Part shown: one piece after another, positions 12,946 to 32,262 of the stretch | How positions within the stretch are numbered: position 1 is the first letter of the stretch | How the letters are laid out: each line of letters begins with the position of its first letter | Assembly (NCBI GenBank): GCA_963772555.1 | Contig: CAVYXQ010000028.1 | Coordinates: forward strand, 27,369 to 91,368 | From: an uncultured Alphaproteobacteria bacterium | GTDB taxonomy: Bacteria > Pseudomonadota > Alphaproteobacteria > Rhizobiales > Beijerinckiaceae | Direction: 5' to 3' | DNA length: 64,000 bases | Notes under the pieces: generated by a model | Database searches by the model: none | What the model was told of the DNA's origin: nothing | What the model saw: only the letters and a program-made list of their open reading frames with translations | Program-made: the position numbers and the translations under genes

Positions 12946-13160
12946 GTGACGGTGGCGTGCGCCATCCAGGTCGACTTCGGCCGGCTTCTCGGCGACATCC
13001 GCCTTCTCGTCGAGCGCGTCGGACAGCTCGCCAAGCATCTCCGTCAGGCGGAGGACGATCTCGCGCCTCTCGGCGCGTCGAGCGCCCGTATCCACTACCG
13101 CTCTGCGCGCATCTTGATCATGGAGCTCGACGAGGTCGAGCCCGAGGAGGCGCCCGACCT
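12946..13160 (+). pseudogene. Fragment resembling the RmuC C-terminus
   Basis: IQVDFGRLLGDIRLLVERVGQLAKHLRQAEDDL resembles the rhizobial RmuC C-terminal coiled coil as I recall it; the rest of the gene is absent. Confidence 0.4.
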
Positions 13161-13348
13161 GCTGCGGCTTGCGCGACGCGGGGCTCAGCAGAATCGGCAG
13201 GCTTCCGCTGAGGAGAATGGGCCCTTTCAACATGCGCAGGGCGGCGCCAGGGGCGGCGGAAGGCCGCCCCATGAACGCGCCAAGCCCCGGTGCGGACAAC
13301 CGCGCGCCCGACGCCCGGGCGGGCACGGGCGCAGCCAGCCTCCAACGC

Positions 13349-14864
13349 ATGACCTCGAATGTCGCCGCACAGCTGTTCTCCCTCGCGGCCTCCGCAATCG
13401 ATCGCTTGGTTCTGGTCGGAATCCTGGTCCGAACCTGGGGGCCGGAACTGTTCTCCGACTATGTCGTCATTCAGTCGATGGCCGCGATGCTCACCATCGT
13501 CGAGGCGGGCCTCCAGATCTATTTCGTGAACGTCGAGAAGGCGGCCTTCGTCGCCGACGACGTCCAGGCGTTCCGCCGCTTCGCGGCGATCCACCTCGCC
13601 CTGATTCTGGCGATTGTCGCGGCGACAGCGGCGGGTTTCGTGGTCTTCATAGTCGCCGGCGGATCGGCTCATCTGTTTCATCTGTCGAGGCTCGAGGCGA
13701 GCGCCGCCCGCGACGTTTTCGTCGTTTACGCGCTGGGCAGCCTGTTGACCGTGCTGCGCTCCGCGACCACAACGATCTACACCGCCGCCGGGGACTTCGC
13801 CTTCGTCGTGACGCTGACCGCGATCTTCCTCGCCACCAATACCCTGGCGGCGATCGTCGCGGTGCTGGCCGGCGCCGGGCCATTGACGTTGGCGGCGATC
13901 TACCTCGCGGTCACCGGGATCGGCTCGGTCGCCTATTTCGCCTGGGATGCCCGCCGACGATATGCCGATTTGGTTGCCTTACCGGCGAGGCCGACGCGTG
14001 CCGAACTGAGGGAGCTCGGGGTCCACCTCAAATGGTTCAGCCTGCAGTCGATCGCGCCGACGATCTGGCTGCAGACACCCGTTCTTGTGTTCAACGCCTG
14101 GCGGGCCTCGGGCGAGGACATAGCTGCCTTTCTCGTGGTCCGCACCATGGTTAACCTGATCCGGCAGTCCTTCCAGTTCGCGGCGATCGGCGCCGGGCTC
14201 GAGATCGCGACGCTCTCGCATCGCGGAGATTTCGCACGGCGCTTGGCGGCTGTCGGCTGCGGTCGGGCGCTTGACGACGACGGTCAGCGCGGTCTGCGTC
14301 GCCGGCATGCTGAGCTTCGGGGCCGGGATCACGCTGCTTTGGACCGGACGCGAAAGCCTGTTTTCACCCTCGATCGCCGCCTGGCTGCTTTTGCCGCTGA
14401 TGCTTGTCGCGCCGCTTCAGCAACCGTTGGCGCTTCTCCAATATGCGAATCTGTCGACCGCCCCGGGCCTGCAGCGGCTGGCGCTGATCCTCCTGACGCC
14501 GCTATGCTGCGCGCTCGGCGCGCTCTCCTGCGGAACGCTCGGCGCCGTTATCGGCCTCGCCGTCGCGGAGGTCGCAGCATCATGGGCGCTGCTGCCTCTG
14601 CTTGCGTCGGCGCTCGCCGGCTTCCGACGATATTGCCTCGGCATGCTTGGCGCCGCGACGGCGACGCTCACCCTGTGCGGGATTGTCGGCCTTGGCTTGA
14701 CCATAGCTTTCCCGTCGGTCTCGCTTGCGGCGATGGCCAGCAAGATCGGCGTCTGGGCGCTGACGGCGGCCGGGCCGACGATCTTTCTCGCGTTGCCAGG
14801 GACGCTGCGCGCCGCGCTGGTGGGCCGCGTCCATCGGCTCGCGGGCGTCCGTTCCGGTCCGTGA
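13349..14864 (+). CDS. Polysaccharide flippase / Wzx-like membrane protein (+1 frameshift at 14228-14233)
   Basis: Many TM segments over two frames; deleting one T from GATTTC gives a continuous GDSHGAWRLSAAVGRLTTTVSA. Confidence 0.7.
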
Positions 14865-14960
14865 AACGAAAGCGCCGGAGATTTTCTCCGCACGGTGGGT
14901 CCTGCTACTACAGGCGCGGCGCGCACGGACGGGCGACGCCTTCGGACTGAGCTTCGCCGT

Positions 14961-15725
14961 ATGCTTTATTGGATATCCAAGGCCATCTGGCGTCTCGTAG
15001 AGCCCGACAACCTGCTGTTGCTCATCGCGCTGTTCGGATTGACGAGCGCATTTGCAGGGCGACGGCGTCTTGGCTTCAGCGTACTGACAGCCGCCCTCGT
15101 CGCGATGCTCTGCATCGCGACACTGCCGATCGGCGCGGTCATGCTGGGCAGTCTTGAGGCGCAATTTCCGGAGCCGCGCATCGAAGGTCCGATCGACGGC
15201 GTCATCGTGCTCGGCGGCGCTCTGAATCCTGAGGCCTATTTCGCCCACCCTGGCTCGGGCCTCAACAGCGCCGTGGCGCGGATCATCGAGGCGGCTCGTC
15301 TGGCGCGAGCTTACCCGACGGCCCGCATCGTCTACTCGGGCGGACCGAGACCGAGCGAAGCGCCCAACGCCAATGAGGGCGAGGCCGCGCGCGATCTCCT
15401 CGTCGCGCTCGGGGTCGATCCTGCGCGCATCACGCTCGATCTCGAATCTCGCAACACCTATGAAAACGCCCGGGAAGCCGCACGATTGATTGAGCCGCGC
15501 CCGGGCGCGCGATGGCTCCTAGTCACCTCCGCTTTCCACATGCCGCGCGCCGTGGCCTGCTTCAGAGCGGTTGGCTTTCCCGTCACGGCGTTTCCCGTCG
15601 ACTTCAAATATCGTCAGCGGGAAAGGGTCGGCTTCGACTTCGCCTCCGGCCTCGCTGATCTCGATCTCGCGGCGCACGAATGGGTCGGGCTCATCGCCTA
15701 TCGGATGCTCGGCCGGACCCTTTGA
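14961..15725 (+). CDS. YdcF/DUF218 (ElyC-like) membrane protein
   Basis: Two N-terminal TM helices, GVIVLGG, IVYSGG, ESRNTYENA, LLVTSAFHMPRA, HEWVGL. Confidence 0.9.
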   Translation: MLYWISKAIWRLVEPDNLLLLIALFGLTSAFAGRRRLGFSVLTAALVAMLCIATLPIGAVMLGSLEAQFPEPRIEGPIDGVIVLGGALNPEAYFAHPGSGLNSAVARIIEAARLARAYPTARIVYSGGPRPSEAPNANEGEAARDLLVALGVDPARITLDLESRNTYENAREAARLIEPRPGARWLLVTSAFHMPRAVACFRAVGFPVTAFPVDFKYRQRERVGFDFASGLADLDLAAHEWVGLIAYRMLGRTL

Positions 15726-15772
15726 ATAGGCGCCCGGCCCATAAAATCTTTCCATGGAACCGCGGCTGAGGC

Positions 15773-16837
15773 TCAAGAGGTGAGGAAATCCGCCATCGCG
15801 GCCTGGAGCCGCGCGTCGAAACGCGAAAAGCAATATTCTTCTCTCCAGCGCCGGAGGCCTTGCGCGCCGAGGCGCGCACAGAGATCTCGGTCCCGCAGCA
15901 GTCCGATGAGCGTATCGGCCAAGGCGTCCGGGCGGTCGCGCGGGACGTTGAAGCCCGTCACACCGTCGACATTAACTTCCTGTCCCGCATCCTCGGTCGA
16001 GGCCAGGACCGGGACGCCGTGGCGCATCGCCTCGACATAAACGAGGCCGAATCCCTCCTTGCGGCTCGGCATCGCCATAACCGTGGCCTCGCGCCAAAGC
16101 GCTTCGATTTCGCCGCCAGGCACGAAGCCCTTGAACGCGATCGAGGCGGTCGCAAGCGAACACGCAGCGAGCGCTCGCGCGCTGTCGAGCCCGCCACCGC
16201 CGCCGGCGATGAGCAAGCGGGCCTCTGGAACCGCCTTGACCACACGCGGCCAGACGGCAATCAAGAGATCATGCCCCTTGGGCAGTCCCGGATCGATGCG
16301 GCCGAAGACGAGAACCGTCGGAGGGCTTTGTGAGGGGCCGACGAAGGCGGGCGCCTCGTCGCTCGCCGTGCCCAGCGGGCATATGCGGACGCGCGCGGCG
16401 TCTCGAAGCGCTCGCGACGCGCGCTCGCGCGTGTAATCGCTGTTGACGAGAACGAGAGCGGCGCGATGCAAAGCCCGAAGTCTCGAGGACCTCGGCTCGT
16501 CCCAGACCTCGATGCCATGCGCCCAGACCGCGCTCGGGCGCGGGCGCCCGAGCGAAAAGCGCCCTGCGCGCGCCGTGCCTGCGAAGTCGTAGACGACGTG
16601 GGTCGCATTGCGCGCCGCAAAGGCGGCGCGGGCGACGAAAGCGAAGCGGCCGCCGCGAAAGGCTTCGATCGGAACCCCTTCGTAGAAGAAGCTTTCGGGA
16701 TCGAGGCAGGCAAGCGAGCGCGTCGCATGCCGTCGCCCAAGCGATTTAGCGGTCAGCCGCGCGACCTCCGCAATGCCACCCGCGCCCTCGCTCATGTGTT
16801 GCGCGCAGATCAAGATCGAGAGTTCGCGGGTGCTCAC
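15773..16837 (-). CDS. GT4-family glycosyltransferase
   Basis: VFGRID..KGHDLLI, MPSRKEGFGLVYVEAMRHGVPV; GTG start approximate. Confidence 0.88.
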   Translation of the reverse strand: MSTRELSILICAQHMSEGAGGIAEVARLTAKSLGRRHATRSLACLDPESFFYEGVPIEAFRGGRFAFVARAAFAARNATHVVYDFAGTARAGRFSLGRPRPSAVWAHGIEVWDEPRSSRLRALHRAALVLVNSDYTRERASRALRDAARVRICPLGTASDEAPAFVGPSQSPPTVLVFGRIDPGLPKGHDLLIAVWPRVVKAVPEARLLIAGGGGGLDSARALAACSLATASIAFKGFVPGGEIEALWREATVMAMPSRKEGFGLVYVEAMRHGVPVLASTEDAGQEVNVDGVTGFNVPRDRPDALADTLIGLLRDRDLCARLGAQGLRRWREEYCFSRFDARLQAAMADFLTS

Positions 16838-16949
16838 GATGGGTGTATCGACCTTGCTGACGGACCTCGATCCGGGGTCGCCCGGCCCCCTTCGCACGTC
16901 GCCCACCGGCGCCGGATCAACCCAGCCAATGGAATCGACGGCGCTCGGA

Positions 16950-17538
16950 GGGGGTCGCGATTGAAGTGATCCATGGCGGCCATGATGCGGTCCTTGAGTT
17001 CCCGTTTGGATGCGACGCAGATATAGCGCAGACCGAGCGGGCGAGCGTGGTCTCCTTGGAGATGTGCGGCGGATGATTGTCGAGGATGGGATTGATCGCT
17101 ATTTGGGCCGGATAGGCGGCATCCAGCAAGCTGACCGTTCCGTGGCGCTTGTACTGGTGATCGCGGGCCAAGGCCACATATCTGCGGGGCACAGGCGGCG
17201 GGTCCGGGGCGGTCGTGGCGATCGCTTGAATGCCAGGCTTCTCATCGTAGGAGACCATCGCCACCGCATCGCTCGGCTTTTGTTTCGAGGCGTTTTCCCG
17301 GTAGCAAAGCAGCGTCCGCGCTCGCCCGACCCGGCTCGCCGATTCCGTTCGCGGGCAGGCGACCGCGCGCAAAGCCGCCAGATCCTCCTCGTTCATCGCC
17401 AATTCGATCGCTTGCGCCGTCCCGCCACGACCTCGAACCTCGCTTCCCAATCAAAGCACAAGAACTACAAGCCATGCCGAGAAAAGTGAATCCTCGGCAC
17501 GGGATTGGTTTCGTGAAACCAATGAACCAGTCCCTGTA
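16950..17538 (-). mobile_element. IS630-family transposase remnant (internally deleted)
   Basis: Pieces VSYDEKPGIQAIATTAPD, DHQYKRHGTVSLL, ILDNH..HISKET and KRELKDRIMAAMDHFNRDP; ends approximate. Confidence 0.8.
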
Positions 17539-17582
17539 AGTTAAAGTCGACCTGCTATCACGATGCTGTGAAAATAGTTCTG

Positions 17583-17679
17583 TTGACGGTCAATATTCGC
17601 GCTAGCGGGAAAAAATGCTTCGTGGTTTGGTCGGCGGGGGTCGGACGCAGCGGCAGAGCACCGCTTGACAGTCAATAGT
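17583..17679. promoter_or_regulatory. Two palindromic TTGAC-N-GTCAA boxes upstream of the UDP-sugar dehydrogenase
   Basis: TTGACGGTCAATATT (17583) and TTGACAGTCAATAGT (17665): 13/15 identical, 82 bp apart. Confidence 0.5.
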
Positions 17680-17827
17680 CGCGCGCATAGCGGATGAAGC
17701 CCACAAGGATGCTTCGTGCTCGGGTCAGCGGCCTTTGGCGCAGCAGCGGTGCGCCGCCGCTCTCCAGGGTTAGCTGCGGCGTCTCACCTTGGAAGGCGCT
17801 TCCGCCGGACTCGAGTTCACGATCCTC

Positions 17828-19106
17828 ATGAAAAACTTGTCCGATCTGAAACTCGCGGTGATCGGCCTCGGATACGTCGGCCTGCCGCTCGCGGTCGAAT
17901 TCTCGAAGCGGTTTCCGGTCGTCGGCTTCGACATCAATCTGACGCGCATCGAGGCGCTGCGCGCCTGGCGCGACGAGACGCTCGAATTGAGCGAGGTGGA
18001 GCTGCGGTCGGCGAAGGATCTGACCTATTCGCTCGACATTCGCGATCTCGCAGATTGCAACTTCTATATCGTCACCGTCCCGACCCCGATCAACGAACAC
18101 AAGCAGCCCGACCTCGGTCACCTGATCAATGCCTCGCGCTCAATCGGATCTGTGCTGAAGCGCGGCGATATCGTCGTCTATGAGTTCGACCGTCTACCCC
18201 GGCGCTACCGAGGAAATCTGCGTTCCGACCTTGGAGAGGGTCTCCAAGCTCTCCTTCAATGTGGACTTCTTTGCGGGCTACAGCCCGGAGCGCATCAATC
18301 CGGGCGACAAGACGCGGCGGCTGACGAACATCAAGAAGATCACCTCGGGTTCGACGCCAGAAGTAGCCGAGTGCGTCGACGCGGTCTATCGCGAGATCGT
18401 CGTGGCCGGAACGCACAAGGCGCCGAGCATCAAGGTGGCCGAGGCCGCCAAAGTGATCGAAAACACCCAGCGCGACGTCAACATCGCCATCGTCAACGAA
18501 TTCACGATGATCTTCAATCGATTGGGGATCGACACCGAGGCCGTTCTCGTCGCCGCCGGCACAAAATGGAACTTCCTGCCGTTCCGACCCGGCCTCGTTG
18601 GCGGGCACTGCACGGGGGTCGATCCCTACTATCTTAGCCAGAAAGCGATGGCGGTCGGCTACCATCCCGAGATCATCCTGGCGGCTCGACGACTCAACGA
18701 CAGCATGGGTCGTTATGTCGCCTCCCAGTTGATCAAGGCGATGGTGAAGAGTGATATCCATGTCGTGAGCGCGCGAGTCCTCGTGATGGGCCTCGCATTC
18801 AAGGAAAACTGTCCCGATGTGCGAAACACCCGCGTCGTCGATTTTGTTCACGAGCTGACCGAATTCAGTGTGGCGGTCGATGTGTGGGACCCTTGGGTCG
18901 TCGCAGAGGAGGCGAAGCGCGAGTACGACCTCGATCTCGTCGCCGGCCCCGAGGCCGGCGCGTACGATGCGATCATAATCGCGGTCGCTCACGACGAATT
19001 TCGCGGCATGGGCGCCGCTCGTATTCGCGCCCTCGGCAAGGAACGGCATGTGCTCTACGATTTGAAATATGTCCTTGCCGAGACGGAGGCCGACCTGCGT
19101 CTGTAG
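17828..19106 (+). CDS. UDP-N-acetylhexosamine dehydrogenase (TviB/WbpO type), +1 frameshift at 18182-18187
   Basis: [53 protein letters not shown]; removing one T restores YESTVYPG. Confidence 0.92.
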
Positions 19107-19169
19107 GCTCCCCTTCACTCTTGGGGTTTTCCTAATCAAAAAAATGCGATTAGATGACCTATCGGAAAC

Positions 19170-20558
19170 ATGCGATGCTGTGTGAACCGTGCGCATCACG
19201 ACGCGCCGCCACATTCTTTTTTGCCGAGACCTGACGCGGTGCTCTACGACAAGGACTCGATTTCGACTGGCGCTTTGCGGAAGTCGCGGGGCGTCGCGGC
19301 AGTCGTCGCTGACGCGCCCGCGAGCGCGATCTTGATCCCATGTCTGACGTTGCTTGGTGCGGTCTTCCTTGCGATCGGACAGCACCTGGTGGCGACGTGG
19401 GCGATCGCCTCCGACGAGGCCCCGGAGGGGGTGCTGAATACCTCGCTCGGCCTCTTTCTCGCTATCTTGAGCGGTTACTATGTCCTGAAGCGGATTTCGG
19501 AATTTCAGAGCATACCAACTGTCGGCGCGGTGCTGACGATTTTCACTGTCTCGTTCCTGACGGTGGTGTGCGGCCTTCTGCTGGCCGGAATCGCGCATCG
19601 GCCGCTGTCTCTCTTCACCGGCTATGTCGTCACCGTGATCTGGTTCGCCGCCGCCTTCAGACTCGGCGCGCGGCGGCGAACGCCGCGGTTCGCTTTGGCG
19701 CCCGTCGGCGAGGCGGCTTGCGTGCGCTCTCTCGCGGGCGCACGGTGGAAGCACGTCGACCCGTGGACGCCGCCTGAGGCATGCGACGGCGTCGTCATCG
19801 ATCTGGCCATCGATCTCGACGCCGAATGGCGAGCCTACCTCACCGCGTGCGTGCTCGCGGGCATTCCCATCTATCACTTCAGAACCGTCACCGAGGCGCT
19901 GACCGGACGGCTAGAGATCGACCATCTCTCCGAGAGCATGTTCGTCGATGTCAGCACGCACCGCTATTATAGCGTCGTTAAGCGCGTCGTCGACTGGGTC
20001 GCCGCCGTCATCGCCATAGTCGCGCTCGGTCCGTTTCTGCTGCTTGTCGCCATGCTGATTCGACTCGACTCCAGGGGTCCAGCGCTTTTTCGTCAGACTC
20101 GACGTACGAAGGATGGGCGGCTGTTCACGATGTACAAGTTTCGCACCATGAAGGTGGGTGCGACTGAGCCGGGCTCGCTGCAGGACGCGATGACCCGCGA
20201 ACGCGACGCGCGGATCACGCGTTTGGGCGCTTCCTTGCGCAGAACCCGGATCGACGAGTTGCCGCAGATCCTGAACATCATACGAGGCGAGATGAGTTGG
20301 ATCGGGCCGCGACCCGAAGCGGCGCTGCTCGCCGAATGGTACGAGGGCCAGTTGCCGTACTACGGATATCGATATTTGGTCCGACCCGGCATCACGGGCT
20401 GGGCGCAGGTCAACCAGGGGCACGTCACCGAGCCGGACGCCGTGCGCTCCAAGCTGCATTACGACTTCTACTACATCAAATACTTGTCCATCTGGCTTGA
20501 CGTCCTGATCGTCCTGAAGACTATCCGCACGATTTTAACAGGGTTCGGCGCGCGCTGA
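19170..20558 (+). CDS. Initiating polyprenyl-phosphate sugar phosphotransferase (WcaJ/ExoY family)
   Basis: N-terminal TM helices; KRVVDW, MYKFRTM, RTRIDELPQILNIIRGEMSWIGPRPE, PGITGWAQV; start uncertain. Confidence 0.92.
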   Translation: MRCCVNRAHHDAPPHSFLPRPDAVLYDKDSISTGALRKSRGVAAVVADAPASAILIPCLTLLGAVFLAIGQHLVATWAIASDEAPEGVLNTSLGLFLAILSGYYVLKRISEFQSIPTVGAVLTIFTVSFLTVVCGLLLAGIAHRPLSLFTGYVVTVIWFAAAFRLGARRRTPRFALAPVGEAACVRSLAGARWKHVDPWTPPEACDGVVIDLAIDLDAEWRAYLTACVLAGIPIYHFRTVTEALTGRLEIDHLSESMFVDVSTHRYYSVVKRVVDWVAAVIAIVALGPFLLLVAMLIRLDSRGPALFRQTRRTKDGRLFTMYKFRTMKVGATEPGSLQDAMTRERDARITRLGASLRRTRIDELPQILNIIRGEMSWIGPRPEAALLAEWYEGQLPYYGYRYLVRPGITGWAQVNQGHVTEPDAVRSKLHYDFYYIKYLSIWLDVLIVLKTIRTILTGFGAR

Positions 20559-20562
20559 AGTC

Positions 20563-21285
20563 ATGCCGGAATCGACACGTCCGTCCGACGCCGCGTCGCG
20601 ACCCAATCCGGCGATCGCCTATTATGACCACCTCGCAAAGGGCTGGAGCAGCCGCTACGCCTCCGGCGGCTTCAGGAAGCGTGCGGACTTTTTTTGTCGA
20701 GAGGTTTTCCCGCTCCTCGCGCCACGCGGTCGGTGGATCGATGTAGGTTGCGGGAGCGGGGTGTTTAGTCGCATTTTGGCCGATCACGGCGCCGACGTGC
20801 TCGGCGTCGATGGCTCGATCGCGATGATCGAAGCCGCGCGCGCCGGCGGGGGCGAGCCAGCGCCCCGTTACGAAGTCCGCTTGATCGAATCGCTCGAACG
20901 CGAACCCGGCGGATACGATGGCGTTCTGTGTCTCAGCGTGATTGAATATCTCGATGATCCCATCGCGGGACTCGCGATCCTGAGACGTCTGTTGCGGCCT
21001 GGCGGCGCGCTCGTCCTTTCGGCCCCAAACCGGCATTCCGCCCTTCGTCGCGCGCAGACGGCGCTGCGGGCGTTGGCCTCGAGCGTCGGCGCAAAGGCTT
21101 TCGATTACCTCGAAAATTCCCGTAATGCATGGTCCAAGCGCGAACTGGTCGCCTTCGCCGACGCTGACGGCCTCGACGTCGAGGCGATTCTCGGTTTCGA
21201 CCCAAAACTGCCCAGCTCGCTGGCGCGCCTCGCCTCACCGAGCCTGTGGTTCCTTGTCGCCCGTAGCCGTGCACCGAAATGCTGA
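20563..21285 (+). CDS. Class I SAM-dependent methyltransferase
   Basis: IDVGCGSG motif I, LGVDGS, YDGVLCLSVIEY, LRPGGALV. Confidence 0.85.
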   Translation: MPESTRPSDAASRPNPAIAYYDHLAKGWSSRYASGGFRKRADFFCREVFPLLAPRGRWIDVGCGSGVFSRILADHGADVLGVDGSIAMIEAARAGGGEPAPRYEVRLIESLEREPGGYDGVLCLSVIEYLDDPIAGLAILRRLLRPGGALVLSAPNRHSALRRAQTALRALASSVGAKAFDYLENSRNAWSKRELVAFADADGLDVEAILGFDPKLPSSLARLASPSLWFLVARSRAPKC

Positions 21286-21304
21286 GACGGCCGACTGGTC
21301 GTCC

Positions 21305-22465
21305 TCACTGTGCGGCGCCGCCGCGGCGTGCGTCGAGGAAGGCGATGGTCTCCTCGGCGATCCGCTCCGCTGCCCGTCCGTCCCAGAGCCTTGGCACGCG
21401 GCCGCGCTTGCCGCCGGTGCGTAGAATGTCCGCGACGGCGGCCTCCAATGCGGCGGGATCGGCGCCGACGAGCGTGTTGGTCCCCTCTTCGATCGTCGCT
21501 GGTCGCTCGGTATTTTCGCGCACAGTGATGCACGGCACGCCGAGCGCGGTCGTCTCTTCCTGAACGCCGCCGCTGTCGGTGATGACGACGCGCGCCTCGC
21601 GCATCAGGCCTAGCGAACGTAGATAGCTCAACGGATCAGTCACGAGCATCAGCGGCGACGTGAGCCGCGCCGCCAGTCCGAACTTGACGAGATTGGCGCG
21701 CGTGCGCGGATGGATGGCGAAGACGATCGGCAGATCGCCGGATAGACGGACCAGAGCGTCGACGAGGCCTGCGAGGCTGGCGGCATCGTCGACGTTGGAG
21801 GGTCTATGCAAGGTCGCGAAACCGAAGCCTTTCGTGGCTCGCGCGGAGCTAAACGTTGGCGAGGCGCCGATCTCGCGCAGGCAATCCGCCGCCGGTATCG
21901 CCCGGTCCAGGCAAGTGTAGAGCGTATCGATCATCACATTGCCGACCAGCTTGATGCGCTCCGGCGCGATCCGTTCGGCGATCAGGTTGGCGACACCGTC
22001 GCGCTCGGTTACGAAATGCAGGTCCGACATCTGATCGACGACGAGTCGATTGATCTCCTCGGGCATGCCGCGATCGAAGCTGCGCAGGCCAGCCTCGACA
22101 TGAGCGACGGGAATCTTGAGGTAGCTTGCCGTGAGAGCAGCGGCGACGGTCGAATTGACGTCGCCGACCACTATCATCAGATCCGGCTGCGTCTCGACAA
22201 GGAGCGGTTGCAGGGCGAGCATCACCCGCGCCACGACCTCACCGCCGGTCCCGGAGCCCACCTTGAGGTTGACGTCCGGCTCAGGAATGCGCAACTCCTC
22301 GAAGAACACGCGGTCCATCGAAAAATCGTAATGCTGCCCAGTGTGGATGAGATGCGAGTCGCACTCGGTTCGCGCCTGCAGCGCCTTGACGATAGGTGCA
22401 ATTTTAACGAAATTCGGCCTAGTCCCGACGACGCAGTGGATATGGTGAGGCTTGCGGTCGGTCAT
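21305..22465 (-). CDS. wecB: UDP-N-acetylglucosamine 2-epimerase (non-hydrolysing)
   Basis: VVGTRPNFVKIAP, HTGQHYD, VGDVNST, AHVEAGLRS, MPEEINR, TDSGGVQEET, TERP. Confidence 0.93.
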   Translation of the reverse strand: MTDRKPHHIHCVVGTRPNFVKIAPIVKALQARTECDSHLIHTGQHYDFSMDRVFFEELRIPEPDVNLKVGSGTGGEVVARVMLALQPLLVETQPDLMIVVGDVNSTVAAALTASYLKIPVAHVEAGLRSFDRGMPEEINRLVVDQMSDLHFVTERDGVANLIAERIAPERIKLVGNVMIDTLYTCLDRAIPAADCLREIGASPTFSSARATKGFGFATLHRPSNVDDAASLAGLVDALVRLSGDLPIVFAIHPRTRANLVKFGLAARLTSPLMLVTDPLSYLRSLGLMREARVVITDSGGVQEETTALGVPCITVRENTERPATIEEGTNTLVGADPAALEAAVADILRTGGKRGRVPRLWDGRAAERIAEETIAFLDARRGGAAQ

Positions 22466-22554
22466 CGTGCGTTCACGTGCTCTTCTTCAAGGGAGGAAGG
22501 GGTCGCCGATGCGCAGAGCTTTTCGTGCGACGGCCGTCTCGCGAGAGTGCATAG

Positions 22555-23826
22555 ATGCGTATCCTGTTTTTCTCGCACTACTACGAGCCGGAGGTCAACG
22601 CGCCGGCCTCGCGCACCGCCGAGCATTGTCGCGCTTGGGTCGCGGCCGGCCATGACGTGACGGTGGTGACCTCTGCGCCGAACCATCCCCAGGGTCGAGT
22701 CTACACTGGCTATCGCAACCGCTGGTTCCAGACCGAGACGATTGACGGGGTTCGGGTCGTGCGCATCTGGACGCTGCTCGCCGCCAACGAAGGATTTGCG
22801 CGGCGGATCCTAAGCTATCTCTCCTATCTCATTTCGGCGATCCTCGCGCTGCCGCGGCTGCCCAAGGCGAATGTCATCGTCTCGACCTCGCCGCAGTTCT
22901 TCTGCGGGCTCGTCGGACTGTATGCGGGGCCACTCAAGCGCGCGCCTTGGGTGCTCGAAGTCCGCGATCTCTGGCCGGAGAGCATCGTCGCGGTCGGTGC
23001 GATGCGCAAGGGTCGTGCGATCCGCTTCCTCGAATGGTTGGAGGCTTTCGCCTACCGACGCGCGGACGCGGTCGTCTCGCTCACGCGCTCCTTCGTACCC
23101 CACATCGCAGAACGCCGCGGGACCGCAAAAGGCATTGTCGTCTTTTCGAATGCCACGGACCTCGGCGCGTTCGTCAGGAGCGACGGTTGCGCGGTGCGGC
23201 GGGCGCTCGGCCTCGGGGGCAAGTTCATCGGCGCCTATGTCGGCACGCATGGCATGGCGCATGGTCTGACAACGATCCTCGACGCCGCGGAGATTCTGAA
23301 AAACGATCCGCGGTTCGCGTTCCTGATGGTCGGCGACGGCGCAGAACGGATGCGGCTCGAAGAAGCACGCGCGGAACGCGGGCTCGACAATGTGCTCATC
23401 CTCGGCCAGCGTCCCAAGTCCGAGATGCCCGACTTCTGGAGCGCGACCGATGCGAGCCTCATCCTGCTCAAGCGATCGGACGCGTTCAAGAAGGTTCTGC
23501 CGTCTAAAATGATGGAGGCGATGGCGATGCGTTGCCCGATCATCCTTGGCGTCGATGGCGAGGCGCGCGAGGTGCTCGAGGAGGCAAACGCCGGCGTCGC
23601 AATTCCGCCCGAGGATGCAGGCGCGCTCGCCGCCGCGATGCGCTCTCTCGCCGACGATCCCGAGCGCGCCGCGCGGTACGGCAGCTCCGGGCGCGCCTAC
23701 GCCGTCGCGCATTTCGATCGCGCCGAAGTCGCGACTCGATATCTGCGCTTCCTGGAGGACGTTGCCGCGCGGCGACCGATTCGCGAAACGAGGCGCGACG
23801 CCGCCGTGCGGCCGGCGGCCGAATGA
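22555..23826 (+). CDS. GT4-family glycosyltransferase (WbuB-like)
   Basis: HYYEPEVNAPASRT, APNHPQG, EVRDLWPES, YVGTHGMAHGL, LPSKMMEAMA. Confidence 0.9.
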   Translation: MRILFFSHYYEPEVNAPASRTAEHCRAWVAAGHDVTVVTSAPNHPQGRVYTGYRNRWFQTETIDGVRVVRIWTLLAANEGFARRILSYLSYLISAILALPRLPKANVIVSTSPQFFCGLVGLYAGPLKRAPWVLEVRDLWPESIVAVGAMRKGRAIRFLEWLEAFAYRRADAVVSLTRSFVPHIAERRGTAKGIVVFSNATDLGAFVRSDGCAVRRALGLGGKFIGAYVGTHGMAHGLTTILDAAEILKNDPRFAFLMVGDGAERMRLEEARAERGLDNVLILGQRPKSEMPDFWSATDASLILLKRSDAFKKVLPSKMMEAMAMRCPIILGVDGEAREVLEEANAGVAIPPEDAGALAAAMRSLADDPERAARYGSSGRAYAVAHFDRAEVATRYLRFLEDVAARRPIRETRRDAAVRPAAE

Positions 23827-25547
23827 GGAATCCGATCGGACACTTGCGGCGTTCAGTCGCCTTTGCGCGCCATGTCCCGCCGCGACAGGCGCTACGCCGC
23901 ATCGTGCTATCCGCGCGCCGGGCGTGGCGCAACCAGTTCGGAGCTCAGACCGCGCCCGTCGATGCCGCGCCGGCGCCGGATCCTCCAACGCCGATCTTCG
24001 GGCCCCGCTCGGGAATGATCGAACACACGCCGCGAGGTCTCGTCTTCACGTTTCTGGGGCGCGCGGTCACGATGGCGCCCTCGGCAATCGACTGGGACGC
24101 GCCGAGCCGCGACCCCGAGCATCAGCTGTGGCGGATGCATCTGCACTACATGGAATATCTCGAGGAGGTCGGCGACACTCTGCTCGCTGCGCTGATTGAT
24201 GATTGGATTCGTGCTAATCCTTCCGGGCGCGCCGGCGCCTGGAAGGACAGCTGGAATGCTTACGCGCTGTCGATCCGGACCGTAGTCTGGATGCAACAGC
24301 TCGCCCTGCGCGGCGGCCGGATCGCCCAGTCAACGCGCGCGCTGGCCGTCGCGAGTTCTCGCGGCGCAACTCGCAAACCTTGAAAGCGAGCTTGAGACCG
24401 ACATCGGCGGCAACCATCTCATCAAGAACCTCAAGGCGCTGCTGTGGGGCTCGGCGTTCTTCCGCGGAACCGACGCGCGGCGCTGGCGGCGCGCCGGATT
24501 GCGGCTGCTCTCCGTCGCGCTCGACGGTCAGATCCTTTCCGACGGCGTCCATTTCGAGCGCTCGCCCTCGTACCATGCCCAAGTCTTCGCTGATCTCCTC
24601 GAATGCCGCCACGTTCTTGGACCCGACAACACTCCTCCTGAGCTCGATGCCCGGCTTCGCGCTATTGCGCAGGCGGCCGCTGACCTCGCCCATCCCGACG
24701 GGCTGGTCGCCCAGTTCAACGACGCGGGGCTGCACATGGCCTATGCGCCGGGGTCCTGCCTCGACGCCTTCAGTCTCCTGTTGGGCGAGCGTCCGGCGCC
24801 GCGCACCTTCTTTGCGTTCCCGGAGGCCGGATATTTTGGTCTGCGGTCGGGCAACACATTCTTCATCGCGGATTGCGGCCGGATCGGTCCGGATGCGCTG
24901 CCCGCGCATGCCCACGGCGACGCTCTGTCCTTCGAATGGTCGGTCGCGGGCGAGCGACTGATCGTCGATCCCGGCGTCTTCGAATATATCGCCGGCCCGC
25001 GGCGCGCCGCGGCGCGATCCGCAGCCACGCACAACACGCTGTGCTACGATGGCCTCGATCAGGCGGAGTTTTTCGGCGCGTTTCGCTGCGGACGGCGGCC
25101 GAAGGTCACAGTGCTTGCCTTTGACGCCGACGACTTTCATCTGGTGCTGAAGGGTACACACAATGGATTCGGCGCCGCCGCGCGCCATGAGCGACAATTT
25201 GAGGTCGGGCCTGGCCGATTGCGGATCGTCGACGTCTTCGACACCCCGTCCGGCCATCCGGCCCGCCTCGGCTTTCTTCTGCACCCGGAGGCGGAGGTCG
25301 GCCGCGCCGGTGATGGGCTCCTGATCGTGCGCGGACGCGTGCGCGTCGAGATGCGCTGCGACGCCCCGATTGCGGTCGAGGGTGCGGTCTGGTGGCCGGA
25401 CATGGGCGTGGAACGGCCGACGCGGCGTGTCAGCGTCGCGCCGGACGGCGCGCGTCGCCGCGTCGTTACAATTTTCGCGTTGCGAACGGAAGAGGAGTAC
25501 GGAAAACCGGAGCACCCCCCCCTGTGCGCTCCCTGGCGTCGCCGTGA
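23823..25547 (+). CDS. Heparinase II/III-like protein (+1 frameshift at 24353-24358; probable -1 in C8 run at 25515-25522)
   Basis: LWRMHLHYMEYL, LETDIGGNHLIKN, DGVHFERSPSYH, PAHAHGDALSFE, RSAATHNT; a C9 run would end the gene at a TGA overlapping the next GTG. Confidence 0.85.
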
Positions 25548-27644
25548 AGCAGGTCCAGCAGAACTACCGCAGCGGCGAATTGAAGCTCGTCGAGGTTCCG
25601 GCCCCTGGGGTCCGCGACGGAGAGATCCTCGTCGCGACGCGCGTGTCGCTCATCAGCGCGGGTACCGAGCGACAATTGGTCGAGCTGGCGAAATCCTCGC
25701 TCGTCGGCAAGGCGGCGGCGCGGCCGGATCTCGTTCGCCGCGTCTTCGCCAACGTGCGGCGCGAGGGGCTGAGGCCGACGCTCGACAAGGTGTTCGCCAA
25801 GCTTGATACGCCGATCCCGCTCGGCTACAGCCTCGTGGGCGAGGTAATTGGGATCGGGTGCGGTGTCGATGGGTATTCGCTCGGCGACCGCGTCGCTTGT
25901 GCAGGCGCCGGCCTCGCCAATCACGCCGAGATCAATGCGACGCCGAAAAACCTGACAGTGCCGGTCCCGCCGGGCGTCGACGACGAGGACGCGAGTTTCG
26001 TGACGCTCGGCGCCATTGCGCTCCAGGGCGTGCGCCTCGCCGCGCCGACCCTCGGCGAAACGGTGGTGGTGATAGGCCTCGGCCTCATCGGTCTCCTGAC
26101 GACGCAGATCCTCAAGGCCAACGGCTGCCGGGTGATCGGTTTCGATCCCAAGCCTGAACGCGTCGCGCTCGCCAAAGACCTTGGCGCCGACGTCGCGCTG
26201 AGCGACTCGCTCCCCGGGGTGGTGGCGAGCCGGACACGCGGCTTCGGCGCCGACGCAGTGATCGTCACCGCGTCGTCGAAGTCGAGCGAGCCCGTCAACA
26301 CGGCGGCGCAGATCAGTCGGATGAAGGGACGCGTCATCGTCGTCGGTCTCGTCGGCCTATCCATCGATCGCGACGCCTTCTACAAGCGCGAGCTTGAGCT
26401 GAAGTTGTCGATGTCCTATGGGCCCGGCCGCGGCGACCCGGCTTACGAGGTGGCCGGCCGTGACTATCCGCTGCCTTATGTGCGTTGGACCGAGCAGCGC
26501 AACATGTCGGCCTTCCTCGACCTGATCGAAGACGGAAAGATCACGCCGAAGAAATACGTCACGCACCGTTTCGCCATAGCCGACGCCGAGAAGGCCTATG
26601 CGTTGATGCAGAGCAGTGCGCCATATCTGGCGATTCTGCTCACCTATCCCGGCGACTTCTTGCGCGCGACTCGATCGCCAGAGGCGCAGGCGCCGCGCGC
26701 GGCGAAAGGCGAGCTCGGCGTCTCGTTCATCGGCATGGGCAATTACGCGCGCTCCGTACTGCTCCCAAAAGTGCGCGACTCCGAGGGTGTGCGGCTCGAG
26801 AGCGTCGTCACCAAGACCGGCATCAGCGCCGGCCATGCGAAGGAGAAGTTCGGCTTCGCTCGCGCGGCCACCGATCCGGCCGCGGCGATCGAGAATCCGG
26901 CGACCGACGCTATTTTCATTGCCACCCGCCACGACACCCACGCCAGGCTCGCGGCGCGCGCCTTGCGCGCAGGCAAGCACGTGTTCTGTGAAAAGCCGCT
27001 CGCGATCGAAAGCGCTGGGCTCGACGATTGCATCGAGTTCCGCGCGGCACGCGACGGGCGTCCTGACGGTCGGCTTCAACCGGCGTTTTGCGCCGCTGCT
27101 CGTCGCGGCGCGCCACGCGCTCGAGCGACGATCCGGCCCGTTGATGATGCTTTATCGCGTCAACGCAGGCGTCATTGCGCCGGAGAGCTGGATCCAACGC
27201 GAAGAAGGCGGCGGCCGTATTCTCGGCGAGGTCTGCCATTTCGTCGATGCGCTGACCTATCTGTGCGGCGCGCTGCCGGTCGAGGTCCAAGCAGTCTCGG
27301 CGGGCGGACGTCCGGACGCAGTTTCGGCGATCGTAAAATTCGCCGACGGTTCGGTCGGCACAATCCTGTATACGTCCCTTGGCGATCCGGGCGCGCCGAA
27401 GGAATATGTAGAGGCCTTCGAGGACGGACGCGTGATTCGGCTTGACGATTACGTCCGGCTGACTGTCGACGCGGGCGGCCGGCGTAAGGCGACGAAGGGC
27501 GCGCAGGACAAGGGCCAGGCGCAGCTCATCGCAGCGTTTCTCGCTGCCGCGCGCGGCCGCGCGCCGACCCCGATCCCGCTCGCCGAGATCGAGGCGGTGA
27601 GTTTCGCGACGCTCGCAATCGAAGAGGCGCTGCGCACGCCTTGA
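25544..27644 (+). CDS. Bi-domain oxidoreductase (Zn-ADH-like plus Gfo/Idh/MocA), +1 frameshift at 27035-27040
   Basis: ISAGTE, PLGYS, GLGLIG, SMSYGPGR, RWTEQRN; then IGMGNYA, HVFCEKP, VGFNRRFAP, GGGRILGEVCHFVD. Confidence 0.88.
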
Positions 27645-28564
27645 ATACCATCCCGACCAAGCTGCCGATCACTGCGATCATCCTCGCCTTCAACGAGGAG
27701 GTTCACATGGCCCGCTGCCTGACGCGTCTCTCCGGCTGGGTCGAGCGTGTCGTCGTGATCGACAGCTTCTCGCGCGACCGGACCGTCGAGATCGCACGGG
27801 AGCTGGGCGCCGAAGTGTTGCAGCACCCCTTCAAGAGCCACTCCAACCAGTTTCGCTGGGGACTCGCAGCCGCGGCGCCGAGGACACCTTGGGTGATGCG
27901 GATCGACTGCGATGAATATTTCGAAGAGACCGCGCCGGCTGCGCTCGCCGCCCTGCTGCCCGGCTTGCCTGATGAGGTCTCGGGCGTGACCGTCAAGCGC
28001 AAGTTCATCTTCCGCGACCGCTGGATTCGCCATGGCCGCTACTATCCGACCTTCCTGCTGCGGATCTGGCGAAACGGCGCTGGCGAGGTCGAACAGCGTT
28101 GGATGGATGAGCACATCATTCTCAATCGTGGAAGCGCGAGGTTGCTTGAGGGTGCCGACCTCGTCGACCACAATCTCAATGACCTCAATTCCTGGACCGC
28201 CAAGCACAATCGCTACGCAACGTTGGCGATGGTCGATTATCTCAACCGCGAATACTCGCTCTTCGCCGAGGATGTGCGTATCGATGGCTCGGCCCGCCCC
28301 GCGCGCCGCGACCGTTTCTTGAAAGAGTCCGTCTATGGTCGCGCGCCGCTCTATTTGAGGGCGGTTGCGTTGTTCGTCTATCGCTATGTGTTTCGGCTTG
28401 GCTTTCTCGATGGGAAAGTTGGCTTTGTGTTCCACTTCCTGCACGGCTTCTGGCTCTTCATGCTGATCGACGCCAAGCTCGACGAAGCGCGCAACGCCAT
28501 CTCTGCTCACGGCCTCGAAGCGTTCAAACAGCACCTTGCCGAAACGCAGCGGATCGAGCTGTGA
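27641..28564 (+). CDS. GT2-family glycosyltransferase
   Basis: IILAFNEE, VIDSFSRDRT, RIDCDE (DxD), WTAKHNRYA; TTGA overlap with the upstream gene. Confidence 0.88.
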   Translation: MNTIPTKLPITAIILAFNEEVHMARCLTRLSGWVERVVVIDSFSRDRTVEIARELGAEVLQHPFKSHSNQFRWGLAAAAPRTPWVMRIDCDEYFEETAPAALAALLPGLPDEVSGVTVKRKFIFRDRWIRHGRYYPTFLLRIWRNGAGEVEQRWMDEHIILNRGSARLLEGADLVDHNLNDLNSWTAKHNRYATLAMVDYLNREYSLFAEDVRIDGSARPARRDRFLKESVYGRAPLYLRAVALFVYRYVFRLGFLDGKVGFVFHFLHGFWLFMLIDAKLDEARNAISAHGLEAFKQHLAETQRIEL

Positions 28565-29736
28565 TCGAAACGGCGCGGCGCCCCGTCGTGCTGATCTTGC
28601 TCGGCTGTTTCTGGCCCGGCAACGATTCCAGCGGTCCAAATCAGAGTTTCATTTCCCTCGCTCGCGCGCTTGGCGACACATTCGAATTCCGCGTCGTCGC
28701 GCGCGATGGCGCGACCGGGCGCCGCCGGGCACAGGAGCCGATGTCGACCGTTGGATCGATCTCGGCTTCGCCAAGGCGCGCTATCGGCGAGTCGGCCGTT
28801 TTGGCGCGATCGGCCTCGGACGGTTGATCGCGCAGACGCCCCACGATGTGCTCTGGCTCAACAGCATGTTCGATCGCGAGTTCTCGCTGCCAGCGCTTGT
28901 GCTGCGGCGGCTCGGCCTCATCGCCCGCAAGCCCACGCTGCTGTCGCCGCGCGGCGAATTGGGCTTCGGCGCGCTCAATCTCAAATCCAGGCGCAAGTTG
29001 TTCTTTCTCGAGGCCGCGCGCAGGCTCGACCTTTGGCGCGGCGTCACCTTGCATGCGACCAGCGAGGCGGAGGCCGCCGACATCGAGCGTGGACTGGCGG
29101 CGAGACGCCCGATCGTCATAGCCCGCAACATCCGCCTTGTCGCCGAGACGCCCACCTACGCACCGAGCGCGAACGGCGTGCTGCGGGTCGCGTTCGTCGG
29201 CCGCATCGCGCCGGTAAAGCAGTTGGATTTCGCGCTGGACTCGCTTGGAAAAGTGGGATCGCGCGTCGATTTCGACATCTACGGTCCGGCCGAAGATGAG
29301 GCATATTGGCGACGCTGCCGCAAGCTAATCTCGGCCCTGCCTGAAAACGTCCGCGCGACCTGGCGAGGGGAGACCGCGAATGCGGAGATTCTCAGGCGGA
29401 TGGCGGCAGACAGATCTCTTCTTCCTGCCGACCGCCGGCGAGAATTTCGGCCATGCGATTTTCGAGGCTCTCGCCTGCGGCGTTCCGGTCCTCGTCAGCG
29501 ACCAGACGCCGTGGCGCGGCCTTGCCGCTCGGCGCGCCGGCTGGGATCTTCCACTTGCCGCGCCGGAAACATTCGTTGAAACGATCGAGGCGTTGGCAGC
29601 CATGCCTGAGGACCAGCGGACGGCGTTACGGCAGGGCGCGCGAGCCGTTGCGCAGGCCTATGTCGAGTGCGGCGGCGCGGTCGAGCGCAACCGCGAGATG
29701 CTGCACGCGCTCTTGCGCGAGGGTGCGGGGCGATGA
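28561..29736 (+). CDS. GT4-family glycosyltransferase with two frameshifts (~28710 -1, ~29410 +1)
   Basis: Three frames give FWPGNDSSGP, LWLNSMF/SPRGEL/FVGRIAPVK and DLFFLPTAGENFGHAIFEALACG. Confidence 0.8.
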
Positions 29737-30917
29737 GCGAAAGGAAGCGCTTGGCGGTCGTCGTCTCGCATCCGATCCAGTATTTCGTGCCGCTCTATCG
29801 GGCGCTGGCTGCGGAGCTTTCTCTCGATCTCCATGTGCTGTTCGCCTCGCGCATCGGTCTCGATAAGACATTCGATCCGGTGATGGGCGCGCCGGTCGCT
29901 TGGACGACCGACCTCACCGGCGGCTATCCGCATGAATTCCTGCCGGAGGCGGGGCGGATCGAACAGGTCGGATTCCGCCGGATCGACAATCCGAGCGTGT
30001 CCGCCGCGCTGCGGCGTTTCGCGCCGGATGCCGTCATTCTGCACGGCTATGCGATGTTGACGATGCTACGTGCGCTTGCCTGGTGCCGCGCCCACGGCGC
30101 CAAGGCGATCCTCATCTCGGACAGTTCCTCGCACGGCGCGCCTGCGGGCCCGCGCCGGTGGGCGAAGAAGTTGATCGCGCCGCTGCTGCTGCGACAATAC
30201 AGCGCGGCGCTCACGATGAGCGAGAGGGGCGAGCGGCATCTGGCGAGTCTCGGCTATCCGCCCGACCGCATGTTCCGCACGCCCATGATGATCGATGCAG
30301 GCTTCTGGAGTGCGCGGCGCGAACGCGCGCGGCGGCGCGCTGAGGAGCGGATGCGGCTTGGCCTCGCCGAGGACGCATTTGCCCTGCTCTATGTGGGCAA
30401 GCTCTATCCAGGCAAACGCGTGTTCGACGCGCTGCAGGCGCTCGAAGCGCTCGAGGACGAACGGTTTGGCGCCGGGACGGTCACGCTGCTCGTCGCCGGT
30501 GACGGCGTTGAGCGTGAGGCGCTGCGGCGATTCGCAACGCAACGTGGGCTCGACGTCCGCCTGCTCGGATTCGTCAACATCGATGCGCTGCCGCAGCTCT
30601 ACGCCGCGGCGGACGCGCTGGTCCATCCGGCAGACAGCGAACAGTACGGGATGGTCGTGCTGGAGGCGGCGGTGGTCGGCCTTCCATTGATCCTCAGCAA
30701 CCAGATCGGCGCTGTCGGCGCGAGTTCGATCGCACGGCCCGATGTCAATGCGCTTGTCTACCCTTGCGCCGATATTCGCGCCCTCTCCCGAGCGATGGCG
30801 TCTATGCGAAACGACGTCGGGCTTCGCCGCCGCATGGGCGCCGCCTCGCTGACGATCTCGGCAGATCACTCCGGCCCTGAAAGCGTCCGCGCGGTCCTAA
30901 GGGCGGTTGCACGTTGA
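29733..30917 (+). CDS. GT4-family glycosyltransferase
   Basis: VVSHPIQYFVPLY, LLYVGKL..KRV, HPADSEQYGMVVLEAAVVGLP. Confidence 0.88.
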   Translation: MSERKRLAVVVSHPIQYFVPLYRALAAELSLDLHVLFASRIGLDKTFDPVMGAPVAWTTDLTGGYPHEFLPEAGRIEQVGFRRIDNPSVSAALRRFAPDAVILHGYAMLTMLRALAWCRAHGAKAILISDSSSHGAPAGPRRWAKKLIAPLLLRQYSAALTMSERGERHLASLGYPPDRMFRTPMMIDAGFWSARRERARRRAEERMRLGLAEDAFALLYVGKLYPGKRVFDALQALEALEDERFGAGTVTLLVAGDGVEREALRRFATQRGLDVRLLGFVNIDALPQLYAAADALVHPADSEQYGMVVLEAAVVGLPLILSNQIGAVGASSIARPDVNALVYPCADIRALSRAMASMRNDVGLRRRMGAASLTISADHSGPESVRAVLRAVAR

Positions 30918-30922
30918 ACCGT

Positions 30923-31270
30923 GGCATTGCCAGAATAATTGATGGGATGGACCTTGCTCTAGGTTCAGGTCACGGGCAATCCCTTCCGATATTTCAACAG
31001 TTCAGGAGAGCCAATCCGTCTTCCGATGATGATGTATGTGAAGTACCGGCTGGCGCCGCGCAACGTTGAGGACCTTCTGTTTGGAGCCGGACGGTATCCA
31101 ACTTACCGCGACTTCGTGCCTTGGCCTGTTTGGACGCCGGCTCGCTGAGCGCACGGAGTGTCCGGTTATGAAGGCACTTTGGAAACCTTGAGCCAGGAGC
31201 GTTCATCGGACCCGAACGCCAAGGTTGATCCGGTCTCGCCTCGCTTTGACGCAAATTAATGCGATAACGC
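30923..31270 (+). mobile_element. IS6-family remnant
   Basis: 30978-31083 reads NPFRYFNSSGEPIRLPMMMYVKYRLAPRNVEDLLF, the IS6 transposase N-terminus; ends are poorly defined. Confidence 0.65.
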
Positions 31271-31499
31271 GACACGGGAGTATGAGGGGCCGCACTCGCA
31301 AGCGCGGAGGCCTCCACTGGCGAGTCTGTGCGCTATGACGAAGCGGTCTGACCGGTGCACCTGCTTGCCTTGGCCCTCGGCGTCCTCTTCACCTTACTGC
31401 GGCCCACTCCCCCTCCTCCCCGCCCTCCGGTGGTCGTATTCGTGCTGCCGGCCCGCAGCCGGCCTAGCGACGCTCGCAGCTGCGCTGGCTTGATTTTTT

Positions 31500-32262
31500 T
31501 CCGCCGCACTCGCGCGCGCTGACCCGGCCGCGTGCCCAGCTGAATCGGCGCTCGAGCCCGGAGCGAAGCTCGCCGCATTGGGCACCGGCGCCAACGCACG
31601 CTCGAGGTGCTCGCGATCGGCTCGTCCTCCACCGAGGGAATCGGCGCGACCTCGCCCGCCAACACCTATCCGGCGCGCCTCGAAGACGAGCTTTCCCAAG
31701 GGAACGGCATCGCTGTCGACGTCCGCAACGCCGGCATCGGCGGGGAGCTTGCCGCCAAGAACTCTGCAGCGTCTGAAAGTCGCGCTGAAAACCGGCTGGG
31801 CGAAGCTCGTCATCTGGCAGGTCGGCGGCAATGACGCGCTCGTGGGCGTTGACGAGACGCTGTTTCCACGGTGGAAAGCGGCGTCGGGGCAGCGCGCGCC
31901 GCGCGTGTGCCGCTCATGCTGATCTACCCGCAATTCATGCTCAAGGCGCCGGACGAGGCGCGCTACGAACGGTTCGTCAAGATCGTCAACGACGTCGGGG
32001 TCCGCGACCATGTCCCGGTCTTGGCGCGCTACGCGATGATGAAACGGCGGGGAACGAAGGAGGTGCAGTCGCTTCTCTCCCGCGATGGCCTGCACATGAA
32101 CGATCTCGGCTATCGCTGCCTAGTCTAGCGCATGCAATTGCTCAGGAGATCGAGAAAGGGGCCGAAGCTGCCGCCGTCGCCCCACTCGCGAGAGCGGCGT
32201 CTGCCCTGGCGCCAACAACTTTTCGAGAGGCCGGCTCTGCTCCGCAAGAGTCGCCTCGATGA
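31500..32262 (+). pseudogene. SGNH/GDSL hydrolase, multiply frameshifted
   Basis: VLAIGSSSTEG (block I), NAGIGGE (II), WQVGGNDA (III), DGLHMND (V) spread over at least four frame changes (~31600, 31759, ~31868, ~32125). Confidence 0.82.

Follow-up and report, generated by a model that had tools for sequence, protein, structure and literature searches.

Extra bases at GAGTTC/GAACTC words in a surface-polysaccharide locus of an uncultured alphaproteobacterium are very probably long-read consensus errors linked to CcrM-type GANTC sites

Short target words of DNA methyltransferases are described sources of error in nanopore assemblies, and GANTC is among the error motifs in agrobacteria (PMC12710330) and Brucella (PMC12392509), where methylation-aware models were found to lower the GANTC-linked errors (PMC12710330). 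Papers on such errors stress mismatches and substitutions rather than insertions at methylated motifs (PMC12710330, PMC12392509, PMC10687267). Single-base false frameshifts are also known from long-read indels at homopolymers, and slipped-strand phase variation of capsule, LPS or O-antigen genes likewise leaves more than one gene of a surface-polysaccharide locus frameshifted. Here we analyzed a stretch of 64,000 nucleotides (the window, C28:27369-91368) from the metagenome-assembled genome (MAG) of an uncultured alphaproteobacterium, in which a surface-polysaccharide locus at window 13-32 kb is interrupted by frameshifts, four of them at the word GAGTTC or its complement GAACTC. Like the published motif errors, these four events lie in a short methyltransferase-target word, survive the consensus and are mostly coding; unlike those, which are mainly mismatches, they are +1 events next to the presumed methylated A, are biased towards methylated GACTC and affect ~2% of sites. 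They also differ from homopolymer indels, since a single T or A is lengthened to two within a fixed hexamer, although one further event of the locus (at 25513) and the deletion-type junctions at A5 and C6 runs elsewhere in the genome do fit that class. Unlike in slipped-strand phase variation, no repeat tract is present, and the same change occurs genome-wide, essential genes included.

We consider it very probable that the four GAGTTC/GAACTC frameshifts are long-read consensus errors, most probably from native-DNA Oxford Nanopore sequencing, and that the genes are intact in the cell. The four sites, with the base that is very probably false in square brackets, are:

18182..18187, + strand: GAGT[T]C, extra T (18185/18186), splits the UDP-glucose/GDP-mannose dehydrogenase gene 17789-19106
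24353..24358, + strand: GAGT[T]C, extra T (24356/24357), splits the heparinase II/III-like gene 23823 to ~25545
27035..27040, + strand: GAGT[T]C, extra T (27038/27039), splits the ADH_zinc_N + GFO/IDH/MocA oxidoreductase gene 25541-27644
31759..31764, + strand: GA[A]CTC, the complement of GAGT[T]C, extra A (31760/31761), within the SGNH/GDSL hydrolase gene 31544-32128

Frame changes were located with a codon-usage Viterbi frame model and checked against Pfam match coordinates and against G035, a same-genus assembly of 920 contigs that served as the main reference for the placement of indels. The model reported one base too many at 14215, 18189, 24353, 27046, 29411 and 31762, all same-strand changes, and one base too few at 31866. 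When the genes were read through these points, single continuous Pfam domain matches were obtained, with higher scores than for the broken forms. G035 is collinear with window positions 12947-16927, 17927-19400 and 19336-30939 at 84-89% identity, and over 11.6 kb it differs from the window by just eight gaps; its SGNH homolog is 71% identical. Compared with G035 or the homolog, the window has its surplus base precisely at the doubled letter, i.e. GAGT[T]C at 18186, 24357 and 27039 and GA[A]CTC at 31761. An original prediction, made on this DNA from its letters, had placed five of six +1 shifts in GANTC sites. The five strings it named are all where it put them (GATTTC 14228, GAGTTC 18182, 24353 and 27035, GAACTC 31759), and the last four do carry the shift; the GATTTC in a gene it called a flippase does not, so that four of the six +1 shifts are on a GANTC-derived hexamer, all four on the same word. 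The doubled base of GAGTTC/GAACTC makes up 0.13% of genome positions, and the probability that at least four of six indels fall there is 5e-11; chance thus cannot explain the pattern.

In the dehydrogenase, PF03721 is matched at 2-120 by the frame-2 piece and at 120-181 by the frame-0 piece, with the junction at nt 18183-18185. G035 reads TATGAGT-CGAC at this site and the homologous loci L002, L004 and L006 have GAGTC or GAATC; pattern scans of metagenome and genome contigs returned only distant UGDH homologs, all with GAGTC, and three distant contigs carry the exact 32-mer around the site with GAGTC. After repair, the dehydrogenase aligns to G035 gapless, in one frame, at 89% identity. The alignment gap falls exactly on the motif in the heparinase-like gene as well (window GAGT[T]CTC, G035 GAGC-CTC), which is one open frame of 679 aa in G035 and after repair shows an unbroken Hepar_II_III_N match (82-314) and aligns to G035 gapless over 568 aa. 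Likewise, in the oxidoreductase the gap is exactly at the motif (window ATCGAGT[T]CCGC, G035 ATCGAGG-CCGC); without repair, GFO_IDH_MocA ends at HMM position 107 (nt 27037), and read through it extends over 3-120; the repaired protein is gapless over 699 aa at 90% identity. The SGNH gene is broken into three frame pieces whose NonGDSL HMM coordinates follow on from one another; the read-through form reaches 104.7 bits vs 33 bits for the best single piece, and at the motif the window has GA[A]CTC where its 71%-identical homolog (L025) has GA-CGC.

The 32-mer at window 18170-18202 (ATCGTCGTCTATGAGTCGACCGTCTACCCCGG), which covers the YESTVYPG motif of the dehydrogenase, also has exact copies in four contigs labelled as unrelated taxa (L047-L050: an alphaproteobacterial MAG, a delta-proteobacterial MAG, a Muribaculaceae MAG and a JGI metagenome contig). 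Three of these loci could be aligned over the rest of the dehydrogenase gene (67-70% identity); the Muribaculaceae locus gave no wider alignment.

The genome-wide tabulation of frameshift contexts that the original prediction had proposed was then carried out. The whole genome was segmented by coding frame, and same-strand junctions were kept if the stop of the upstream frame lay >30 nt beyond the change point, a distance filter that separates frameshifts from ordinary gene boundaries. This left 324 insertion-type (+1) and 192 deletion-type junctions; with the stop >100 nt away, 222 and 49 remained, respectively. GAGTTC/GAACTC was found within 20 nt of 94 of the 324 insertion junctions vs 48 of 1729 controls (odds 14, p = 5e-46). 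The other GANTC-derived hexamers were enriched at +1 junctions too (GAATTC 7x, GATTTC 3x, GACTTC 2x), and the variants with one outer letter changed (CAGTTC, GAGTTG, GTGTTC) showed no enrichment there. In an unsupervised ranking of k-mers, GAGTTC/GAACTC and the overlapping CGAGTT, AGAGTT and AGTTCG came top. Flanking preferences were mild, with C before the word and G or T after it. Altogether, the motif-linked excess amounts to ~125 events on nearly all large contigs, ~5 per 100 kb, and includes housekeeping genes; we estimate that ~2% of GAGTC sites and ~0.5% of GAATC/GATTC (GAWTC) sites are affected. Homopolymers of at least 5 nt were not enriched at the insertion-type junctions of the genome, and insertion-type junctions lacking GANTTC yielded no convincing second motif.

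As an independent check, 200-nt segments around 26 random GAGTTC events elsewhere in the genome were searched in G035. A match over the motif was obtained for 14, with 13 informative alignments; in 12 of the 13 the sole gap was inside the hexamer, with the surplus in the present genome, and in 7 of these 12 G035 had a GANTC word. Three other approaches to the statistics were set aside. An initial genome-wide test over all open frame-overlap intervals gave GANTTC at 3.45 vs 3.36 per kb, the signal being swamped by gene boundaries; a simple observed/expected ratio of k-mers was uninformative for GANTTC (~1.0); and no background indel rate could be derived from further G035 loci, as BLAST at ~80% identity gave many paired compensating gaps. 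Look-ups of exact proteins did not reveal a further assembly of this strain.

Deletion-type junctions were enriched for A5 and C6 homopolymers. ATCGAT was present at 11 of 192 of them vs 7 of 1184, with GATGCA/TGCATC enriched as well; ATCGAT may be another target of methylation and bring about the loss of single bases. Besides CcrM, the genome has two genes for N6/N4 methyltransferases, one at C3:374.9-375.7 kb and one at C27:24.5-25.5 kb.

The same insertion also breaks essential genes. With one motif base removed, ileS (site at C11:84501) matched TIGR00392 (an equivalog model) over 2-858 of 861, secA (site at C16:146696) matched NF009538 (equivalog) over 1-813 of 814 and acnA matched NF006757 (a subfamily model) over 3-885 of 888, each match running unbroken over the junction. 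The genome has no further copy of ileS or acnA, and for secA only a 38%-identical paralog. A cell whose only ileS is frameshifted would not be viable, so that these changes must have come about during sequencing or assembly.

The genome encodes an intact CcrM-family methyltransferase of 393 aa (C11:331-332 kb). It matches 6PBD, the Caulobacter CcrM, with E = 9e-147 over 351 residues; residues 37-387 align to 14-364 of chain A (492 bits), so that the protein is full-length including the C-terminal domain. Against NF050803 it scores 591 bits over 3-347 of 350, below the equivalog cut-off of 830 bits, and judged by its sequence it is best named a CcrM-family ortholog rather than a certified equivalog. 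That it recognizes GANTC is inferred from homology. The doubled base is at the position of the methylated adenine on the GACTC strand, or is the T that pairs with it. Since all four GANTC words are hit and the one-letter variants are spared, the pattern fits the specificity of CcrM.

The course of events that we propose is that the CcrM-type enzyme places a methyl group on the adenine of GANTC in both strands and that the modified base distorts the signal, upon which the basecaller or polisher would sometimes add one base next to the methylated A. The commonest context would be methylated GACTC, read as GAACTC (GAGTTC on the other strand), and a few percent of the sites would flip in the final consensus. 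Both methylation as the cause and nanopore as the platform are presumed here; indirect hints of long reads are the 36 contigs for 6.25 Mb, the excess of insertions and the homopolymer deletions. The proposal in the original prediction, that the shifts are artefacts at CcrM-methylated GANTC, is thus borne out by the genome-wide recurrence, the essential genes, the gap placements in 12 of 13 alignments and the CcrM ortholog, with the amendment that GANTC-derived hexamers are not hit evenly and that there is a strong bias to methylated GACTC.

Several points weigh against this explanation and were considered in grading it. The artefact was deduced from the assembly alone, and the platform was deduced as well. 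Published motif errors are mostly substitutions and here +1 insertions are seen. Although all four GANTC words are substrates of CcrM, the error strikes them very unequally. Finally, 4 of 26 GAGTC sites in the locus are expanded (~15%) vs ~2% genome-wide, and five unrelated indels come on top, so that the consensus is locally worse here than in the genome at large. Intact GANTC sites are present nearby, as had been remarked previously: between 13000 and 32200 there are 22 GAGTC/GACTC and 32 GAATC/GATTC.

Altogether, nine frame-breaking indels were found in the 19 kb of the locus, and five of the nine are not at GANTC:

14228..14241, + strand: extra C at 14237 (GCA[C]GG) in the membrane-protein gene 13169-14864; the GATTTC at 14228-14233 is genuine
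25513..25522, + strand: one base fewer than G035 at 25513, at the 3' end of the heparinase-like gene, beside a C8 run (25515-25522)
28719..28720, + strand: two extra bases, GC, in the 5' end region of a GT1-family glycosyltransferase gene; not GANTC
29403..29406, + strand: extra G, GGC[G]GC at 29405, splits the same GT1-family glycosyltransferase gene, ~28564-29736; not GANTC
31862..31870, + strand: net -1, 4 nt shorter than the homolog, restores the SGNH frame; not GANTC

The first of these concerns the gene that had been called a flippase. It is indeed frameshifted, but the correction of GATTTC to GATTC proposed for it did not hold: G035 reads GATTTCGCA-GGCGCTTGG in this region, G002 and G011 keep GATTTC too, and the extra C lies four bases downstream of the hexamer. 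In G035 the gene is one 550-aa open reading frame (ORF) that matches two window frames joining at 14217-14257. The product, a multi-pass membrane protein of ~550 aa, is conserved in G035, G002 and G011; it had no Pfam match even at E = 10, and the name flippase comes from the original prediction only. Near the 5' end of this gene, at window 13255, the comparison of the window with L027 shows G035 to have one base more than the window (GGGGCG-GCGG); G035 reads GCGAGTTCGCGG here, with a GAGTTC in the relative that is not in the present genome.

A shift near 29410 had already been recognized as lying off GANTC, and it can now be assigned to the extra G at 29405 (window GGATGGC[G]GCAGAC, G035 GGATGGC-GCAGAC). 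An alternative reading as GACTC plus T (GATCTC at 29413) does not hold, as G035 has GATCTC too and the surplus is the G at 29405. In the broken gene Glycos_transf_1 is matched at 91-170 only, read through at 18-170, and the C-terminal half starts at nt 29404. The other three indels had been missed previously. At 28719 the window has GACCGG[GC]GCCGCC and G035 GACCGG--AGCGCC, and the frame model switches at 28742; with both indels removed, the GT1 protein is gapless over 389 aa and 88% identical to G035. At 25513, addition of one base makes the heparinase-like gene end in ...PPPVRSLASP, its TGA overlapping the GTG start of the oxidoreductase (GTGA); uncorrected, it runs 260 nt into the oxidoreductase gene. 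This deficit is probably a homopolymer deletion error. At 31866 the window reads CTGTTTC----CACGG where L025 has TTGTTCCGCGCCACCG, and the third Pfam piece of the SGNH protein begins at nt 31865.

After removal of all nine indels, each of the six proteins can be aligned to G035 DNA within a single frame, and in G035 itself every one of the six genes is an uninterrupted open frame. The five repaired proteins with G035 orthologs are gapless at 85-90% identity, and repaired SGNH has one gap compared with its 71%-identical homolog. The repaired proteins contain no stops, and in-frame stops, truncations or relaxed conservation, as looked for in a pseudogenised or decaying cluster, were not found. 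For the five non-motif indels, which the motif leaves unexplained, ordinary consensus errors of long reads are the probable cause.

Another explanation is that the metagenome assembly resolved this variable locus poorly as a whole, because coverage was low or strains were mixed, and that all nine indels are unpolished consensus noise. We give it about even chances. The five of nine indels off GANTC speak for it, as do the origin of the sequence from a MAG with an estimated contamination of 4.7% and the clustering of frame junctions in several 20-kb stretches. However, it would explain the local density only and does not compete with the motif effect; the four motif events are still exactly on the hexamer. 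A locally poor consensus at a strain-variable metagenome locus is the likeliest source of the error density in the locus. On average ~1.65 candidate junctions occur per 20 kb of the genome, and several other 20-kb stretches are as dense as the locus or denser by junction count: C1:24663-44663 has 11 junctions, C36:7112-27112 has 9 and C7:159214-179214 has 8. These stretches are nearly devoid of GANTTC junctions (1 of 11 in C1:24.6-44.6 kb); they may reflect low coverage, strain mixing or long repetitive genes on which the frame model goes wrong.

Far less probable, in our view, is a mis-sizing of GACTC/GAGTC, less often of GAWTC, by the basecaller or polisher independently of methylation, with a partly coincidental overlap with the CcrM word. 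The concentration of the error in one strand context (an excess of 85 events for GA[A]CTC vs 11 for GA[A]GTC) and the small share of sites affected, only ~2%, are in its favour. However, the enrichment of four GANTC-derived hexamers, and not of the outer G/C variants, points to GANTC specificity rather than to one k-mer; moreover, CcrM is encoded in the genome, and the published GANTC errors are tied to methylation and become fewer with methylation-aware models (PMC12710330). No paper on the exact signature, a +1 insertion at GACTC, came up in a literature search.

It is very improbable that the frameshifts are real, i.e. that the locus is inactivated or phase-varied by +1 insertions favouring methylated GANTC, as the original prediction had put forward for the case that they were real. 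Nine indels in 19 kb are well above the genome mean, an IS66 transposase gene adjoins the locus, and polysaccharide loci are classic contingency loci. But other 20-kb stretches hold as many junctions or more, a TT or AA dinucleotide is no slippage-prone repeat, the repaired proteins, without stops and 85-90% identical to G035, give no sign of decay, and the same insertion breaks ileS, secA, acnA and ~120 other genes on nearly all large contigs. Only the indel at 25513 touches a homopolymer, the C8 run, and the events extend beyond surface or contingency genes. Since they are not confined to the locus and are found in essential genes, phase variation is effectively excluded. We give equally little credence to a variant in which the extra GANTC base is real in part of the population, N6-methyladenine in GACTC acting as a hotspot of +1 replication slippage, the dense cluster in the locus serving to switch it off, and the essential-gene cases being minority alleles caught by a noisy consensus. 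The four GAGTTC/GAACTC frameshifts are therefore best regarded as long-read consensus errors, a known kind of sequencing artefact and no biological feature.

The source MAG comprises 6.25 Mb in 36 contigs at 65% G+C, with an estimated completeness of 98.9%. The locus and its upstream neighbour have the following content:

10476-12125, - strand: IS66-family transposase ORF directly upstream of the locus; DDE domain matched in the C-terminal part only
window 13-32 kb: multi-pass membrane protein (the former flippase) and DUF218
window 13-32 kb: several GT1/GT4 and GT2 glycosyltransferases
window 13-32 kb: UDP-glucose/GDP-mannose dehydrogenase and Bac_transf initiating transferase
window 13-32 kb: methyltransferase and UDP-GlcNAc 2-epimerase
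window 13-32 kb: heparinase II/III-like protein, ADH/GFO-IDH-MocA two-domain oxidoreductase and SGNH hydrolase

Urease accessory genes follow downstream. Outside the locus, the window has further same-strand frame changes at 37291, 40505, 42612 and 62984, with the stop 30-88 nt beyond; each may be a frameshift or a gene boundary. None of the four is at GAGTTC, and the one at 40505 adjoins an A5/C6 run (caaaaagcccccc).

The significance of these results is practical rather than biological. About 125 genes of the MAG very probably carry a false extra base at GANTC, and non-coding sites would be affected in addition. Gene calls, pseudogene counts and readings such as 'genome erosion' or 'phase variation' in this MAG and in similar long-read alphaproteobacterial ones would be wrong unless corrected, and a +1 frameshift at GAACTC/GAGTTC may serve as a screen that marks the artefact in other assemblies. 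The polysaccharide locus itself should be annotated as probably intact; that it is functional, as the original prediction had proposed, is only probable because the five non-motif indels remain. At the same time, the error pattern provides indirect evidence for GANTC methylation in this uncultured lineage.

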